Shown: in pieces, positions 31,543-41,999 of the stretch
How positions within the stretch are numbered: the first letter of the stretch is position 1
Layout: every line of letters begins with the position of its first letter
DNA from: Xylographa opegraphella
Taxonomy: Eukaryota
DNA: 64,000 nucleotides
Direction: 5' to 3'
Assembly (NCBI GenBank): GCA_022813865.1
Contig: JALDZX010000029.1
Span: 186,001 to 250,000 of the forward strand
Notes under the pieces: generated by a model
What the model was told of the DNA's origin: nothing
Databases searched by the model: none
The model's input: the letters and a program-made list of their open reading frames with translations, nothing else
Position numbers and translations under genes: made by a program

Positions 31543-33666
31543 CTAGGCATCTAGCTTCAGCCGCTCCAACAGCGCATCGATCTTTCCCAGAAGAACCTGG
31601 TAATTGATCGCGTCGCCCGCAAACTCGTCACCCGCGATCTCCCCATCCAGCATTCTGACAGCACCGCTCGCGAGCTGTGCCTCCACATCGGGAACTATGA
31701 AGTCCGCAGGTCTGGAAGCGCCCTTCTCCGCATTCCATCCGTCCTCCTCACCTTCTTTCACTTCTTCTACGAGCCCGCTGTCCTCGCCATTCACTATCCC
31801 CGCGTCCTCGTCGTCCATCATCTCCTCCATGCCCGCGTCCTCGAACCGTAACCTGAAGCGCTCGGACAGGTAGAAGCGGATGTCGTCCACTAGCTCAATA
31901 CTGTCGGTCTCCTGCCGGGCTTTGATGCGCGCCGCGCTCTCGCGAACCAGCTCCGCGAATTCCTCGTCGTCGATGTAAGCCTCCAGCCGATAGGCCAGGA
32001 AACGTGCTGCGAACGTTTCAAGTCGTGGCACGCGCGTAAGCCAGCCAGCACGAAGGACGTCGTAGATATCAACTTCGTCGATACCGCCGTCTACGGTGCC
32101 AAACGCAGCAGTCTCTCCGTTGTTTAAATTTGCAATGCTGGCATGCTGGGGCATGGATCCATTGCCGAGAGTGCTGATCGCGACCGCGGCCTTGACTTTG
32201 AGCTTCTCGATGAGAAGAAGGTCGGCGGCGAAGAGGACGTCGACGGCAAGCGAGAGAGGGATGGTCGCGTTTTCGGTGTAAAGACAGGTGAGGATGATCT
32301 CCAAGACAGCTGGCGAGCAATCAATGAGGACGATCAGGAGATGCGGGGTGGGTTGCGCTTCGAGAAACGAGGAGGAGAACATGGTGAGGAAATATTCGGA
32401 ACGTAGGAGTATGGCGCGATGGGCCGGGTAAAGTGTTGATTGCCGACTTGCAGTGAAATTGGATATGGAGGATGATTGCGACAAAGGCCCGACGGGAATT
32501 CCGAGAGGAAGACCCCTGGACTCCTGTTCCGAAGGAATACTGTTATTCAGGGGCGTTTCAGTCCCACTTGGAAGAGGAGTATCTTCGGCTACTACCTCGT
32601 CGGCTCTCAGCAAAACGTCGGCGAAGATGGCGTTGTCTCGATCCCATTGTACATTGTTGGCTATCGAGGAGTCGATCTCGATTTTGTGCTTCATTACGTT
32701 ATCACGAAACCACGCTTCGGTTTGATTTCTGCCTCTTTCCACCTCTTCCGTCCTGTTTTGCCGTGCCAGACGGCGATCGGAGCTTTCTAGAATCCCTTGC
32801 CACAAGCTTGGTATTTCCAGATACTTGCTGATCTTTTCAATTCCTTCGAGGACCTCCTCCTCTGTGAAACCTGTCCCAGGTCCTCCCCCAACATCATTGG
32901 GTATTTCGCCGAGATAGACGTACCTGATTGCTATATCAAAGGCTTGTGGGGGAATCTTTGGTGGAAGCTTCCAGCTCGTCGTGTCCGGCGCATTCCCAAG
33001 CTTCTTACGGAAGTAAGGTGATCTCGCTGAGAGGATGAATTTGTGCAAATTGAAGGCTCTATCAGCAGAGGTTACGAGGATGTCTGAAGTTTGAGGATGT
33101 TCCCTCGTCAACAAAGAGGTAATGTGAGCTGCAAATGGCTGCAGAGGATCGCTAGATTTTGAGTAGTCATATGACAAGAGGAGGTTTCTGATTCGATCGT
33201 TCAATGCGTTGTATAAACATCGTTCGCCTTGGAATGTGTCCCGTTCGCACAGTGCCCCGGACTCCAGGAGAAGCCTAAGCGTGCGTGTCAGCTAGCCAGC
33301 TTCATTCACCCACCTCAGCTTTCAGACGGCATGTCTAAGGTCAACTGGGATAAACTCACTGGACTACTTCGTAATGTCCACAAAGACTGGCCTTCTCTTC
33401 TCAGCGCCGGCTCTCCGCCAATGCTACTGAAGTGCACTCACCAAAATTAAAGGCGTGTAGTCGAACTGGTCTCTAGCGTTTATATTCACCCCCTCCGTCG
33501 TGATCATCTCCTGACACACCTTGAGGTCGCCTCGTCGACATGCTTCGCAGAGCTTGCTGAAGCTGGCGCTGAGGTCCAGCGGACTGTCCTCTTTCAATCT
33601 CCCATTTTCGATAAGCTTCTTTTCCTCGTGAAGACTGGCTTCAAGTTGATCTTTCCTCAAAATCAT
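31543..33666 (-). CDS. Ankyrin-repeat and BTB/POZ protein (Btb3/YIL001W-like Cul3 adaptor)
   Basis: Ankyrin repeat LCEACRRGD..GVNINARDQFDYTPLILASLCGHYEVV, then BTB motifs FNLHKFILSARSPYF and YPAHRAILLRSEYF. Two introns. Confidence 0.9.
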
Positions 33667-34116: not shown

Positions 34117-35493
34117 TCAAATTTCGATCGAGCGGACTTCTTCTGCAACAACTTGATTGCTCTCCTTAGTTTCCCGCTCCGGGACCGCTGATACAACGCT
34201 GGAGCCAAGGCTGGTCACCTCGCTGTCTTTTGGCTTCACCTCTGGTGCTTTCGTCAACGGCCAATGGCCATTCTTCTCCTTGTATCTTAATGCCAAGAAT
34301 GCACAGATTACCGCAACCCAATAAGCATTATAGGATATGACGGACCCATACGTCGCAGAGTTCTGCCATCCTAGAAGAGCATTGAATACTCCCCAGCCAC
34401 CACCGCCATTTATTTCTGGGTTGCAGCACTGTACAACAGGTTAGCCTATATCTCCACCTATGTGAGCGTGCTCTGGAGACTGACGTTGACGTGCCACACA
34501 CTTTGTCGAATGTCATATGAACCGGGTCCGGAGCCTGCCTCGGAGAGATCTCCTCCAACGAGATTGTTCCACTAGTGAGGATTAACATTTCTTCTTTTCC
34601 ACGAGGACGACAGATATATATACCGTATTTTCTTGGAAGAGCCAAACGGCCTTTGAAAAAAGACCTGCGGCAACAAGATACAAGAAGCATGTTGAAACAA
34701 TTAAGAATATCTGAATGGAAGCGAAGTTGGCGCCCCTAAAGTCATTAATTCTAAGACTCTTGAAACATTGAAGACAGAAGAGCTTACTTGTAAATAAAGA
34801 AGCCAATGAGACAACCAGCGCCTAGGCCAGTCACAACAGCGAGAGGAAAGGAGGTTGCTGGAAGCCCCAAGCTTACACCACCGATGAAGATTACTGCTTC
34901 GAGCCCTTCTCGAAGGACAGTGATGAACGGAAGCATGAACATCACGTATTTCTCGCACCACTTCTTGAATCTGTTCATTATAGTACCACGCCTGGTGCTA
35001 TCTTTGGCTTCCAAGGCTTTGGCCAGCTTGACGCGCCATTTATCTTGCAACTTAGACACTCTAAGCAGAGCAGCTCCCATGATGGATATGATAATGGAGG
35101 CTACCAAGCCGAAGGTACCTTCCCAGATATTTTCTGAGCCTGCCCAATGGTTCTTACCCAGGCCATAAAAAGCCCCGATCATGCCAGCACCTATACATAT
35201 GCAGATAATCAATCCAAGGATGGTCCCCATCCATACCTATTTCTGATTCAGTGACAAAGCCAATTGATCAGCTCCAGCTTTGCATACCTGTCGGCGTAGC
35301 TTCTTGTAGGTCGTTGGATCCCGGTCTGGTCCCAGAGTCTGCTTCAAGAAAGCCAGCAGAATGGAGACAATTATGCTGGTTTCAAGCGTTTCTCGAAGAC
35401 ATATGAAGAAGACTACATTTGCATCAACATCTCGGGCAATGCTTATGTCATTACATTCAAATACATACTCGGGATAGCGAAGACGCTCGACAT
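34117..35493 (-). CDS. FTR1: High-affinity iron permease
   Basis: Starts [19 protein letters not shown]. Second REXXE motif VLREGLE, plus [30 protein letters not shown] and [12 protein letters not shown]. Five introns. Divergent from FET3. Confidence 0.95.
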
Positions 35494-35620
35494 GATTTTT
35501 GTGGACCAAAAAAAACTTGATAAAGAGACTTCTAAAGGAGAAACAAAGCAGTCTCAGACACTATGACCACTGGATTGTTCTGATGGCAATGGTACTATGC
35601 AGTGCTGGGTGGGGTGGAAG

Positions 35621-36611
35621 ATCTGATAACGACTTTAAGATAATTTCAGAGATGGGGTGATGGCAGTTGAAACCGCCGAAGAAAGTTCCGCTCCGATTAT
35701 CTGATCGCGCTAAGGCCCGACTAAGCTGAGTAGTGCGGGTCCACGGTGTGCTTTGGTGTGCTTCCGTCCGATTACTCCACAAGACTGCGGGCGGGGCAGA
35801 GTGAGATCGTGACCGAGATCGGCGCGCTCGACTCCCTCGTGAATTTACCGAACTTGAGGAGGGGGCTGGAAGCAGCTGAACGAAGAATGACAATGTGGCT
35901 GTCGGGTGAATGGTCCTCGGAAATGCTCTGAACCTCTGACGCTTGACCGGTATTTCAGCTCTACTCCGAACTGCTTGGCGCCGTTCAGCTCCAAGCACAC
36001 GCTGACGAAGGCTCTAGCCCGTCGTCACCAGGGACCTCCTTCGCTCTCAGTCATCCAAAGTTCCACGTGTATTGGCCTTGGACGAATCGGAGTCACACTC
36101 TTTATCAATCTGATCTAATCTCTGCCCTAGTCTATCCTTGGTGTTCCTGTTTGCGCGAGTTTTCCAAGGGGCCCGATTCCTTAGCTAATCGGCCAATCTA
36201 AGAACGGAACTTTGTCCGAAAGTAGCCGTCATCGGCTGATAATTTTACTGTACTGCTCGTCTCTCGGACCAATTGACAGCCAGTAGACCCAAGACTAATC
36301 GCATTGTACATCGGCTTCAGCAATCTTCGGGCATTGCCTTTCTTCTTTCCTCTACATACACCAGCTTCGTGAGCTTTTCCGAATCCTTGTGTGGCTTGTT
36401 TGTGTGGTCTGATTGCGGGTAGAGAATTTCCTTGGGGCCCTTGCTGCGTTGTTCTTGCATCGTTCTTGCATCGTGCTTGCATCATCCGCAGCTTCCAACC
36501 GAGCTCCGATAACGGGCGCGTTGGGAACCCTAATCAAATCTTATCAGATGATCTTTGCAGTCCTTCCCTTCTCCAAAGCTTGACTGCATCTGTGTAAGCA
36601 CGATCAGATAA
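35621..36611. promoter_or_regulatory. Four SreA/SRE-type iron-repression GATA boxes (ATCWGATAA)
   Basis: ATCTGATAA at 35621-35629 (+), ATCAGATAA at 35697-35705 (-), ATCTGATAA at 36541-36549 (-) and ATCAGATAA at 36603-36611 (+), all in the shared FTR1/FET3 promoter. Confidence 0.8.
36451..36483. repeat. 11-bp tandem repeat GTKCTTGCATC x3
   Basis: gttcttgcatc gttcttgcatc gtgcttgcatc, read directly. Confidence 0.85.
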
Positions 36612-36912: not shown

Positions 36913-38957
36913 ATGTGGTCCGCTGGTTTGTTCTCAACTGCAGCTATTCTCTCTTGTTTCGTGTCTCTTGGTTGCTCCACCACAGTCACATACGACTTCA
37001 ACATCACATGGGTCACTTCCAATCCTGATGGAGTCTATGAACGATCTACAATAGGCATCAATGGCCAGTGGCCTCTACCAGCTATAAGAGTCTCCGTGGG
37101 AGACCAAGTCGTTGTCAACGTGATGAACCAGTTAGGCAATGAGTCGACCAGTCTGCATTTTCATGGCATCTATCTCAATGGGTCGACAGAAATGGATGGT
37201 ACTGCCGGTGTCAGTCAATGTGCCATCCCACCAGGCGCCTCGATGACGTATAACTTTAAGGTGCGTCAGGATCTCTCAGTTTGGTCAACCGGAGAAGACT
37301 AACATTACTCAGGTTTATCAGCCCGGGACGTACTGGTATCATTCCCACGCTATGGGCCAGTACCCTGACGGCCTACGAGGGCCTTTCATAGTGCAGGACC
37401 CGGCGTCTCCGTTCGTAGATTTGTACGATGAAGAAATTGTGCTTACTCTTTCTGACTGGTATCATGAATCGATGGCCGTGCTCGTACCATCCTTCATTAA
37501 TATCGCCAATCCCAGCGGGGCTGAACCTATTCCAGATGCCGCTCTGATTAATGATGCACAGAATGTATCATTATTAGTCAAGCCTGGGAAGACGTACATG
37601 ATTCGGATCATTAACATGGGAGCTTTCGTCGGCCAGTATCTGTGGTTCGAGGATCACAGTATGAGTATCATCGAAGTCGATGGTGTTTATACAGAACCAG
37701 CAGAGACGGAAATGCTATACCTCTCAGCAGCTCAGAGATACAGTGTATTGCTAACGACGAAGAACGATACCTCATCAAATTTTGCATTTGTTGGAAGTAT
37801 GGACCAGGTTCGTGATTCCTATTGCGATGTAGAATGTTCATTATTGACGATGATAGTAGGTAATGTTTGATCACGTACCTCTGGGTCTTAATCCAAACGC
37901 TACTGGTTGGCTTGTATACGATGAGTCAGAAGAACTGCCACCACCAGTATTGTTGGAAGACTTCTACCCATTCGACGATTTCAATCTCGTGCCATATGAC
38001 CGCGAGGCGCTATTTGAAAACGTAGATCACTCCATTACTCTCAATTTCATGATGGGGAATCTGGACGATGGTGCCAATTAGTATGTATGACAGTTCGCCA
38101 GGAGTCATCATCACTAATCGACAACTAGTGGGTTTTTTAACGATGTCACCTATGTCTCTCCGGTAGTCCCGACTCTCTACACTGTCTTATCGGCAGGTAA
38201 TGCTGCTGGCGATGTAGCTATCTATGGTAATAATACCAATGCCTTCATCCTCAAGAAAGATGAAGTGGTGGAAATTATTCTGAACAGCGCGGACTCCGGG
38301 AAGCATCCATTCCACCTTCATGGTCATAACCTCCAGGTTGCAGCACGTTCTGCGGTCGATGCAGGTCCATACACAGGAAACGTGTCGCTGTCACAGATAC
38401 CAATGCGTAGAGACACCTTCATGATAAACTCTGGTGGTTACGTTGTCCTACGGTTCAAAGCCAGTAATCCAGATGAGTCACTGCGTAACAAAAACTCCTG
38501 TGGACGCTTGCTAACATATTTTTACGGGTTTGGTTGTTCCACTGTCACATTGAATGGCACATGGATGCAGGTCTTGTTGCCACAATGATCGAAGCTCCGT
38601 TGGAGATCCAAAAAACGATCAACATTCCCGCTGACCACTACAAAGTATGTGCGGACCAAAACTTACCGTATTCTGGTAATGCAGCGGGGAACACAAAAGA
38701 CTTTTATGATCTCAGTGGAGAACACGTATCAGCGCAACCTATACCGGCCGGGTTCACTGCAAAAGGCATTGTTGCTCTAGTGTTCAGCTGTGTTAGCGGG
38801 GTTGTGGGTGTTGCCGTCATTGCCTGGTAAGACATCTCCGCCTTTCAACACGATCCGGCTAACCTTGCTGTGAAGGTACGGTATGGGCGAGATTGGTGCA
38901 CACGACATGGCCGCCGCAAGAAGGGCTGTCATTGAGCTTACAGGGGGCAGCAGTTAG
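36913..38957 (+). CDS. FET3: Multicopper ferroxidase
   Basis: Signal peptide, copper motifs [18 protein letters not shown] and HCHIEWH, Fe-binding GAEP, C-terminal [25 protein letters not shown]. Five introns, including an AT-AC intron at 38473-38525. Confidence 0.95.
38473..38525 (+). other. Non-canonical AT-AC spliceosomal intron (U2-type signals) in FET3
   Basis: CCA G|ATGAGT...GCTAAC ATATTTTTAC|GG GTT TGG restores [14 protein letters not shown]. No AG occurs between the branch point and the copper motif. Confidence 0.85.
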
Positions 38958-39873
38958 TGCTCTGCATGGCGTTTTCTCAAAAGCGTGATGGCAATGGAAA
39001 TGTATATAGTTATTTGCGATATATATGGTTCATGAATTTGAATCGAGAACAGGCATGTTTCATTTGCCCGCTGTCAGGCACGATTTACGACTATCACAAG
39101 TAATGTAGACCACTCCAGGTCCAATGGTTTTCAACCTCGCGGCTGATGATAAATACCATTGTTCCATGGTTATCACCTTCGATATTCGCCTTCCATATGG
39201 AGTGTGAACACGAAATCGAAAAATAGCCTGAGCTCCAAAGGCATTTTTCATCTTTCGTCCAAGTCACGACGGATACAGACTAAGACGTCAACACAAACTT
39301 TTGTTGGCAGAAGCTGCTGTAGGGGCATCTCGTCGTTTCACATGGACGCTGCATTTGTGCTTTTGGTGGAAGTTTGCTTGTTTTGTTAATGTGATCAAGT
39401 TGATTGGTTCGATATGGCGAAAGCCACGATAAGGCATTAATGAAGAACACATCAAACAAAATACTTGCACTCAGAGATTACATCATAGTTAGTGCACAAC
39501 TCGCAGGCAAGTACGTTAGGGCAACCAGCCAAAACACATCTTTTGTCCATGACCAATATCCACTTTCATTCCTGTGTGAAAGCCGAGAAGCTCCGAGCAA
39601 GAATTGCATAATTTATTGGGTATGCTTACGTCGGACTCGGCACTAGCCTGGTAAATTTGCAGATCTTCTGCCCAAACCACCGAAAGCTTGCACAGCCACT
39701 CTTCCGAACATTATTTGAAGCCACCCCAAAGTTGATATCGGGCTTCAAAGCGACCAGCCTGCGGACGATCATCACTAAGAATAGGCCAATCCGCAGCTCG
39801 ATCCCTCCTCGACCAGGTTCTCAAATAACAGGTCTTTGCAATCAATTCTTACGGAAGTGCACAACGAAACAGA

Positions 39874-41999
39874 ATGAGCTCGCCCGCCAGCGACGCTCCC
39901 GCTCCGGAGCCACCGCTGTCCCCAAGTATGGCAGCACTGGGGAGTACAACTCAGACTGAGGACTTCGCACGACCGGTCTCTCCTTCAGCACCCCGACTTC
40001 CAAACTTGCGCACCGTGACGGATTCTCCTTCTGCATCAACCATGACCGCCTCGTCAACTCCCTTGGGCGCCATCAATGCCGCCCGCCGCCCTGCAGCTCC
40101 TCAACCAACGTCGTCGACCATCAGAAGTGGGGGTCTTCCGCAAGACATGCAAGCAAAAATGAAAGCGTTCCAGCTTTCTCGACAAGGAGCTCCTCCAGGT
40201 CAGAAAGTACAGACAAGTGGGCTGCCTCCGGGAAACCAGCCACTTTCGGCTGGGCACGTACCAGCTGGTGCAATCGGAGGCGGGTTAGCACTGGGCGGAC
40301 AGATGGCGCCTGGTGCTCTCAGAGCTCCTCCATTTGCTGGTGGAACAGGAGCATTTGGGATGAGCGGCAGACCACCGAACCACAAGACCACTTCCGCACC
40401 AGCTATTCCCAACGCCAGGCTCAACCCCAAGGCAGGCTTGGCAGCGAAGAGAGGGATGAACGGCGGGCTTTTTAAGTTATCCGACGCCCAAGGGCCGGCA
40501 CCACCTACAATGAGCGTTGATGGATCAAACGGGGACGCGAATAACTCCAGCAATGCACCACTGGGAGCGACGGAACACAAAACAGAGACCGCCTTCAGCA
40601 GATGGGACAAGATTGTTGACACGAAGACTGGAACTCTTAAATTCGCCGGCAAAGCTACAATACATGGCCAGGGTATTGATTTTCAAGATGGTGGCAGCTT
40701 CAGTATATCTCTCGATGAAGTCGATACCCTAGAGGAATTGGGAAAGGGTAATTATGGTACTGTCTACAAAGTACGGCACAGCCGACCTCAGATGCGACGG
40801 CCTGGTCAGGGACTGCAGGGGAACAAAGCTCCTACCATACTTCAATCTTCACTGAACAAGTCGGAAAATGCGGACAAGTCCAAGGACGACCTTACAGCTT
40901 CACCTCAAACGAGGCGCCAGGGCAATACCACTGGCTTGGTAATGGCTATGAAGGAAATCCGCTTGGAACTCGATGATGCCAAATTTGCTGCTATCGTTAT
41001 GGAACTCGATATTTTACACCGCTGTGTTTCCCCCTTTATAGTTGACTTCTATGGTGCTTTCTTTCAAGAAGGTGCAGTCTACATCTGCATGGAGTTTATG
41101 GACGGCGGGTCTATTGACAAGTTGTATGGCGAAGGAATACCCGAGAATGTTCTGCGCAAGATTACTCTTTGCACGGTAATGGGTCTCAAGTCACTCAAGG
41201 ACGAACACAACATCATACATCGAGATGTCAAGCCCACGAATATACTCGTAAATAGCAGAGGCCAAGTCAAAATCTGCGACTTCGGTGTCAGCGGTAACCT
41301 TGTCGCCAGTATTGCAAAAACAAATATTGGATGCCAAAGTTACATGGCCCCTGAAAGGATCGCAAGCGGAGGTGTCGCCTCTGCTGGAGCCAATCCTGGC
41401 GGAGGGACATACAGTGTACAGAGTGATATATGGAGCTTAGGCTTGAGTATCATCGAGTGTGCTATGGGCCGATATCCATATCCTCCAGAAACCTACAACA
41501 ACATCTTCAGTCAGCTAAGTGTAAGTCATCCGATCCATTGTCGTATGAGCCGAGTTTTAGACATTAGACTAACTGTATCCTGTTTTAGGCAATTGTCGAT
41601 GGAGAACCTCCAGACCTTCCTCCCGTGGGATTTTCAGATACCGCTAGGGATTTTGTCCGCTCGTGTCTGCATAAGGTCCCCAAGCTTCGCCCGACTTATG
41701 CCATGCTGATCCGACACCCCTGGCTCTCGCCTCTATTAAAACCTCCTACAATATCAGAAGACGACGAAGACGAGGAGGAAGGGGCAGGCTCAGATGCGGC
41801 AACGGTATTGGGAATAGGAGGTGGCGCGACTACGGCGGACAAGGAAGTTGCTGCGTGGGTTACCAACGCCATAGAGATGAGGAGGTTAGGAAAGATGGGC
41901 AAGAGATTAGCGCCAGCGTTGCATGCGGCTCCTTTGGACGCAGTCGCCAGCCCGAGCAAGGAAATGAATAGAAAGGACATCGCCGCTGGCGGCGAGTGA
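39874..41999 (+). CDS. PBS2: MAP kinase kinase of the HOG pathway
   Basis: Motifs ELGKGNYGTV, MAMKEIRLELD, IIHRDVKPTN and DFGVSGNLVASIAKTNIGCQSYMAPERI. Intron 41521-41588. Confidence 0.95.

Follow-up and report, generated by a model that had tools for sequence, protein, structure and literature searches.

The DNA analyzed here, hereafter the window, is a stretch of 64,000 nucleotides (nt) from Xylographa opegraphella (contig JALDZX010000029.1, positions 186,001 to 250,000) and carries on its plus strand, at 36913–38957, the gene FET3. Its coding region is composed of six exons (36913–37260, 37313–37807, 37860–38080, 38129–38472, 38526–38826, and 38876–38957) and five introns and specifies a protein of 596 amino acids (aa) in an open frame. 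Ordinary GT-AG borders delimit intron 1 (37261–37312, 52 nt), intron 2 (37808–37859, 52 nt), intron 3 (38081–38128, 48 nt), and intron 5 (38827–38875, 49 nt). Intron 4 (38473–38525, plus strand, phase 1, 53 nt) has AT-AC ends and is the subject of this analysis. It immediately precedes exon 5 (38526–38826), which encodes the copper-ligand motif HCHIEWH and the start of a C-terminal hydrophobic helix. The FET3 exons match the Pfam families Cu-oxidase_3 (PF07732), Cu-oxidase (PF00394), and Cu-oxidase_2 (PF07731), corresponding to three cupredoxin domains. All four copper-ligand histidine motifs, HCHIEWH among them, are present in the spliced translation, in which a hydrophobic stretch forms the C-terminal helix at the end of exon 5. 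The top solved-structure match of exon 5 is yeast Fet3p (1zpu, E 4.6e-14), laccases scoring 5.6e-06 or worse, and the closest database proteins come from Xylographa vitiligo (88% over exon 4) and Xylographa trunciseda (85%), both members of the Xylographaceae (Lecanoromycetes, Baeomycetales). By its domains, its copper motifs, its membrane anchor, and its pairing with an FTR1 permease gene, FET3 is assigned to the Fet3-type ferroxidases, its activity and its role in iron uptake being predicted.

Exon 4 ends with AAT CCA G and exon 5 opens with GG GTT TGG TTG TTC CAC TGT CAC; between them, intron 4 starts with ATGAGT (38473–38478) and ends with TTTTAC (38520–38525), so that the predicted spliced junction 38472/38526 reads ...AATCCAG/GGGTTTGG. 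Positions 1–110 of the Cu-oxidase_2 profile lie on exon 4 and positions 112–135 on exon 5, and the Gly codon split by the junction corresponds to the single profile position between these two matches. All GT or GC donors and AG acceptors were enumerated around the site and no pair restores the frame; every length-compatible GT/GC-AG pair uses an acceptor at or before 38477 and then meets a TAA at 38486–38488. Past the AG inside the 5′ splice site, the sole AG in 38479–38575 is the one at 38569–38570. Furthermore, the borders cannot be slid, the flanking bases being different (G/C on the left, A/G on the right). Because the Cu-oxidase_2 match continues from position 110 to position 112 and no GT/GC-AG pair works, exactly 53 nt must go, and 38473–38525 is the exact stretch to be removed for the open 596-aa FET3 frame. 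Retention of the intron leads to an in-frame TGA at 38586–38588 and to a product of 507 aa devoid of HCHIEWH and of the membrane helix. An earlier note on this DNA, made from the sequence alone, had given the ATGAGT and TTTTAC ends, the length of 53 nt, a GCTAAC branch site at 38510–38515, the AG at 38569–38570, and the stop at 38586–38588, all of which hold, and its claim that no GT-AG solution exists is confirmed by the enumeration.

The signals surrounding the AT and AC ends are those of an ordinary intron. The 5′ splice site CAG/ATGAGT (38470–38478) matches the U2-type consensus CAG/GTRAGT except at +1. The branch site GCTAAC, in the context TTGCTAAC, has its branch A at 38514, at a distance of 11 nt from the last intron base; introns 1, 3, and 5 of FET3 have a similar spacing. 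The 3′ terminal AC (38524–38525) lies in the context TTTTAC/GG.

To place this intron among its homologs, metagenome contigs were scanned with an exon-4 alignment, which yielded 80 related loci, 60 of them resolved by script and the other 20 read by eye from three-frame translations. At the position of FET3 intron 4, 53 of the 80 loci have no intron and 13 have a GT-AG intron; two (L031 and L071) have a GT start with a 3′ end beyond the contig, and one (L026) is cut by the contig end. AT-AC borders are found in nine loci (L002, L003, L011, L034, L039, L042, L047, L054, and L056, the introns being identical within the pairs L039/L042 and L054/L056) and AC-AC borders in two (L008 and L059). This position, in phase 1 between NP and G[VI]W, is common to ordinary GT-AG introns in other Pezizomycotina, and the homologous GT-AG introns, 52–131 nt long, share the same codon and phase (e.g., the Alternaria-like loci L016 and L045). 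The first and last bases are always paired: A(+1) occurs with C(–1) in 12 of 12 introns, counting that of the window, and G with G in each of the 13 GT-AG introns. The 11 related introns starting with A (A-type introns) all end with YAC or TAC. Since independent relatives have the same arrangement at this codon, the AT...AC borders are more than chance.

The AC-AC introns of L008 and L059 are 52 nt long, read ACAAGT...GCTAAC...CCCAC, and correspond to the AT-AC state plus a C at +2, which recalls GC-AG introns. They differ from each other at three positions, and thus a single read error is not their origin. In the tree described below, both sequences cluster with AT-AC and intron-less ones.

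The sequence context of the A-type introns is uniform. All 12 are preceded by CAG and have RAGT at +3 to +6 (CAG/AYRAGT overall; ATGAGT in the window, ATAAGT or ACAAGT in the relatives), compared with CAG in five and RAGT in five of the 13 GT-AG homologs. All 12 also have a CTRAC-type branch site 9–25 nt from their end, with no AG after it. A 5′ site that matches the consensus except at +1, as found in intron 4, is the feature by which PMC1557818 recognizes U2-type AT-AC introns. We therefore regard it as very probable that intron 4 is a genuine natural AT-AC intron of the U2 (major-spliceosome) type, its dependence on the corresponding small nuclear RNAs (snRNAs) being predicted.

The same intron state can be traced in annotated proteins. 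The anchor motif preceding the junction was found in 117 of the 120 best homologs. Among these 117, 82 read NPG with HCH inside the next 80 residues (correct join or short patch, e.g., P0021), six have NPG and then other residues, HCH being absent from the next 80, and 29 read NPD, of which 24 remain once five Fusarium models are set aside. These 24 proteins read NPDK[SFCWYL], NPDMS, NPDE, NPDN, or NPDT. As only the first base of the Gly codon precedes the intron and Asp is encoded by GAY (G/AY), NPD implies an intron that starts with A, and the third residue in the NPDK proteins is compatible with ATAAGT. In all seven models reading through in frame, an Arg (C/GN or A/GR) precedes [VI]WLFHCH, and the last intron base is therefore C (or A), never G. 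The NPD proteins originate from Lecanoromycetes, Candelariomycetes, Coniocybomycetes, Sareomycetes, Xylobotryomycetes, Thelocarpales, and Vezdaeales; judging from these predicted proteins, the A-type FET3 intron is spread over at least five classes of mostly lichen-forming Pezizomycotina.

These introns are also the place where gene models fail. Annotated proteins of two Xylographa species, for instance, are truncated, one at 507 aa and the other at 482 aa. The X. vitiligo model P0001, which ends ...LLTYLYGFGYSTVTLNG..., reads as a translation through an intron like that of the window, with a Tyr (TAY) where the window has TAC, and, at 507 aa, it is precisely as long as the product calculated from the window upon intron retention. 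Indeed, among these homologs, all 15 NCBI-annotated A-type FET3 models (P0001, P0002, P0003, P0007, P0013, P0019, P0020, P0023, P0037, P0050, P0051, P0062, P0072, P0095, and P0119) are wrong at the junction, 10 being truncated at 415–507 aa and five read through or patched. Among the listed homologs, no protein from a spliced transcript was nearly identical to an AT-AC locus. The earlier note had expected gene predictors to break at this point, as P0001 illustrates, and had proposed aligning the orthologous intron in related fungi, where AT-AC does recur at the same codon.

Some other models at this junction deserve mention on their own. In the five Fusarium proteins set aside above (P0089, P0096, P0098, P0099, and P0109), NP is joined straight to DPLALQ with 23 residues deleted; they look as if a predictor had taken 69 nt of in-frame sequence for an intron, an artifact that is unrelated to AT-AC and also removes a copper-ligand motif. 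The Teloschistaceae-like proteins P0021, P0091, and P0120 read NPGD or NPGT inside a clade where AT-AC is common and were flagged by the script as keeping a GT-type intron. Of the two readings, only NPGT agrees with a GT start, P0021 rejoins IWLFHCH in frame, and most of the neighbors of these three sequences show a correct join; they may represent a reversion or an old polymorphism, as seen at the protein level. No clear NPD junction was present among the 116 new proteins retrieved by a search for homologs of L039. Finally, P0183 from Xylaria grammica, outside the AT-AC clades, reads NPDFPSPP; this case is ambiguous, the implied start ATTTCC being unusual as a 5′ site, and it is probably a prediction artifact.

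What lies beyond the junction bears on whether the intron is spliced. At nine of the 11 A-type loci, the post-junction sequence is 51–65% identical to that of the window over 77–121 residues, for 56–65% upstream, and HCH is kept. The alignments of L054 and L056 are spoiled by a high-scoring segment pair that reads through the intron, and their exon 5 begins with G-V-W-L-F codons. As an untranslated copper motif and membrane anchor would decay over class-level divergence, we infer from the conservation of the downstream exon that intron 4 must be accurately excised, most likely in a constitutive manner.

Mechanistically, U1 would still recognize CAG/AUGAGU, all positions but +1 matching the consensus, and U2 would pair with the consensus branch site GCUAAC. 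The second step would then work since an A(+1)/C(–1) pair can substitute for the non-Watson-Crick G(+1)/G(–1) contact, as established from yeast and mammalian mutant studies. Excision would restore the Gly codon and bring HCHIEWH and the C-terminal membrane helix in frame, and the full ferroxidase is expected to work with the adjoining FTR1 permease. The optimal neighboring positions look like compensation for the mismatch at +1, i.e., selection for efficient splicing, and a similar compensation is described for GC-AG introns in PMC1557818.

Phylogenetic analysis was used to follow the intron state. Sequences with fewer than 200 aligned residues were dropped before tree building, which removed five of the 24 proteins with an inferred A start. 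In the FastTree phylogeny of 194 sequences, a set of 67 sequences with a support of 99 includes the window. It holds the 19 A-inferred proteins that were long enough, six of the nine AT-AC loci, and both AC-AC loci, together with 28 proteins showing a correct G[VI]W join (protein level only), eight intron-less loci, and the three Teloschistaceae-like proteins flagged as GT-type. L039, L042, and L047, whose AT-AC introns are 66–67 nt long, fall outside this set. In an IQ-TREE phylogeny of 71 sequences selected from the 194, in which the backbone is unresolved, these three loci are sister (support of 95) to Sordariomycete- or Leotiomycete-like sequences, and the nearest named proteins to L039 are about 70% identical to it; this AT-AC group may represent an independent origin. 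Among the 20 intron-bearing DNA sequences, the fewest switches between A and G is two. One old origin followed by reversions and two or more origins are not separable, as there are only two independent contrasts, and the A/C–G/G covariation is consistent with compensation rather than a statistical proof of it. As a reversion of only one end should abolish splicing, the AT-AC state would be old and self-locking, and its long retention is expected without any function of its own.

Other explanations of the AT and AC ends were considered. A sequencing or assembly artifact is favored by the fact that both ends are noncanonical and that a single run, possibly the source itself, contains the stretch. 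However, the Logan contig of this run (X1, word depth 162.6) shows zero differences over 37800–39000 (1201 bases compared), and the A...C ends recur in 11 contigs of other assemblies, while 24 proteins annotated independently imply them as well, so that we hold the probability of an artifact to be negligible. Regarding two other runs, the X2 contig is short, about 80% alike, and covers 38659–38929 only, outside the intron, and X3 has no contig matching the 37800–39000 region. The truncated annotations, such as those of 507 aa and 482 aa in the two Xylographa species, would agree with a broken gene in which the intron is kept and FET3 is truncated or dead in this lineage. This is nevertheless highly improbable given that exons 5 and 6 of the window, like those of all 11 A-type relatives, are open and conserved with HCH kept, that the intron keeps perfect splice signals next to an intact FTR1 partner, and that decay would be expected over class-level divergence. 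A U12-type (minor-spliceosome) intron would be characterized by the 5′-site consensus ATATCCTT and by a TCCTTRAC branch site. The 12 A-type introns contain no U12-type motif, neither an ATATCC start nor a TCCTTRAC-type branch site, the 5′ sites being ATGAGT or ATAAGT rather than the former consensus and the branch sites being CTRAC. What speaks for the U12 type is that it accounts for most animal and plant AT-AC introns, as stated in PMC7072748, and that the branch A of intron 4 is only 11 nt from the 3′ end, although equally short distances are found in the GT-AG introns of FET3. Furthermore, the survey of more than 3000 genomes in PMC10639083 reports no convincing minor introns in Ascomycota and Basidiomycota, mentions their "complete absence" from Dikarya, and indicates that Dikarya have lost most or all minor snRNAs; a U12-type intron is thus extremely improbable here. 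The assignment to the major spliceosome and the rejection of a sequencing error, both of which had been put forward from the sequence of the window, are supported by the U2-type signals with no U12 motif, by the identical X1 contig, and by the same ends in the relatives. Some points nonetheless weigh against a spliced U2-type AT-AC intron. X1, the only run containing the stretch, possibly comes from the same sample as the window. In the 24 cases known from proteins, the first intron base is read as A, which does not distinguish AT from AC, and the last one is revealed only in part. The lack of U11, U12, U4atac, and U6atac in this fungus is taken from the literature on Dikarya, the A/C–G/G covariation is perfect and yet amounts to only two independent contrasts (sign test p 0.5), and the excision of the AT-AC FET3 introns is deduced from conservation.

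The remaining alternative is regulatory. The earlier note had suggested that the intron may be poorly spliced and serve as a post-transcriptional switch on iron uptake. In this view, slow or conditional splicing, with retention leading to the 507-aa stop, would tune ferroxidase to iron and copper atop transcriptional control. Retention would indeed strip a copper-ligand motif and the membrane anchor, the AT-AC state is conserved across at least five classes, and A(+1) substrates are slower in the first splicing step in yeast and mammalian work. In contrast, the signals flanking all 12 A-type introns are uniformly optimal: except at +1 the 5′ site is the best possible, the branch site follows the consensus, and no AG competes. 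Moreover, 53 of the 80 related loci are intron-less and 13 have GT-AG at the position, and intron-less sequences as well as models reading G[VI]W are also found inside the same well-supported clade. The two-step barrier to reversion accounts for the conservation just as well, and four SreA-type promoter motifs already suggest ordinary transcriptional control. Conservation of AT-AC alone does not show regulation, and a switch of this kind appears improbable on the present sequences, the optimal signals and the intron-less or GT-AG state of relatives having spoken against the suggestion. A bolder version is likewise unlikely, in which AT-AC would have been kept since before at least five classes diverged, would later have given rise to the AC-AC derivative, and would persist as a splicing checkpoint on iron uptake and not as a frozen accident. 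If true, it would constitute a splicing-level control specific to slow-growing, metal-exposed fungi.

A constitutively spliced U2-type AT-AC intron, the reading we prefer, belongs to a class known since the 1990s, and its borders recall the yeast and mammalian suppression experiments in which a G1-to-A change is rescued by a 3′ G-to-C change. The same base pair is changed in both situations, which explains that the two ends differ together; unlike the engineered suppressors, the FET3 pair is natural and fixed, and one sub-lineage adds a C at +2 to give AC-AC. U2-type AT-AC introns ("AT-AC II") form a defined class in PMC1557818, with human SCN4A and SCN5A as examples, and are very rare, the SpliceRack counts given there being 15 in human and 0 in Arabidopsis. 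Like the SCN4A and SCN5A introns, FET3 intron 4 has AT-AC ends on an otherwise U2-type 5′ site. The former are removed by the major spliceosome and have borders conserved from human to puffer fish (PMC1557818). In contrast to them, the FET3 intron is fungal, is 53 nt long, has a strict CTRAC branch site, and resides in a group reported to be without the minor spliceosome, its dependence on U1 and U2 being predicted. It shares its terminal dinucleotides with U12-type AT-AC introns, lacks their 5′ and branch consensus, and differs from them by a host group devoid of the minor machinery according to PMC10639083. Compared with the GT-AG introns at the same FET3 position, the codon and phase are the same; those introns have canonical ends, and their 5′ site and last three exon bases vary more.

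As to fungi, AT-AC is rare in annotations according to PMC7072748, and the fungal cases presented in PMC1557818, in xylanase genes, are hypothesized only. In Fusarium graminearum, Sanger sequencing has verified junctions of both the AT-AC and the AC-AC kind (PMC3577648). This system resembles ours in that the host belongs to the Pezizomycotina and both AT-AC and AC-AC are present; unlike for the FET3 intron, the section of PMC3577648 devoted to these junctions names no genes and reports no conservation across classes and no link with FET3. Our searches of the literature on AT-AC introns in connection with ferroxidase, Pezizomycotina, or lichens yielded no report of the FET3 intron or of its conservation in lichen-forming fungi. 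FET3 intron 4 is a new and unusually well-conserved case in a known rare intron class.

This intron thus provides a clean natural example of major-spliceosome AT-AC in fungi reported to be without the minor spliceosome, and the homologous series of GT-AG, AT-AC, and AC-AC introns at one position is usable for the study of first- and last-nucleotide pairing and of 5′-site compensation. As a stable character conserved across at least five classes, the AT-AC state might also serve as a phylogenetic marker for these lineages. Gene predictors should permit AT-AC (and AC-AC) at the FET3 junction. With the annotated models, comparisons of iron uptake among lichen fungi would mistakenly treat FET3 as devoid of a copper-ligand motif and of the membrane anchor.

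FET3 forms a pair with the divergently transcribed FTR1 iron permease gene, located on the minus strand at 34784–35560 and perhaps on to about 34117, where two open reading frame pieces match PF03239 (E 1.5e-36 and 6.4e-06); the gene probably extends further downstream on that strand. The 1.35-kb intergenic region contains four ATCWGATAA motifs (35621–35629, 35697–35705, 36541–36549, and 36603–36611) out of six in the window, for 1.27 expected by chance. This motif is reportedly linked to SreA-type GATA repressors, being present in a paper titled "SreA-mediated iron regulation in Aspergillus fumigatus" (PMC2610380), and the intergenic cluster suggests ordinary transcriptional control of the SreA type. 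On either side of the FET3-FTR1 pair lie a long open frame upstream (31543–33291, minus strand, 582 aa) and another downstream (39829–41709, plus strand) with protein-kinase motifs (HRDVKPTN).

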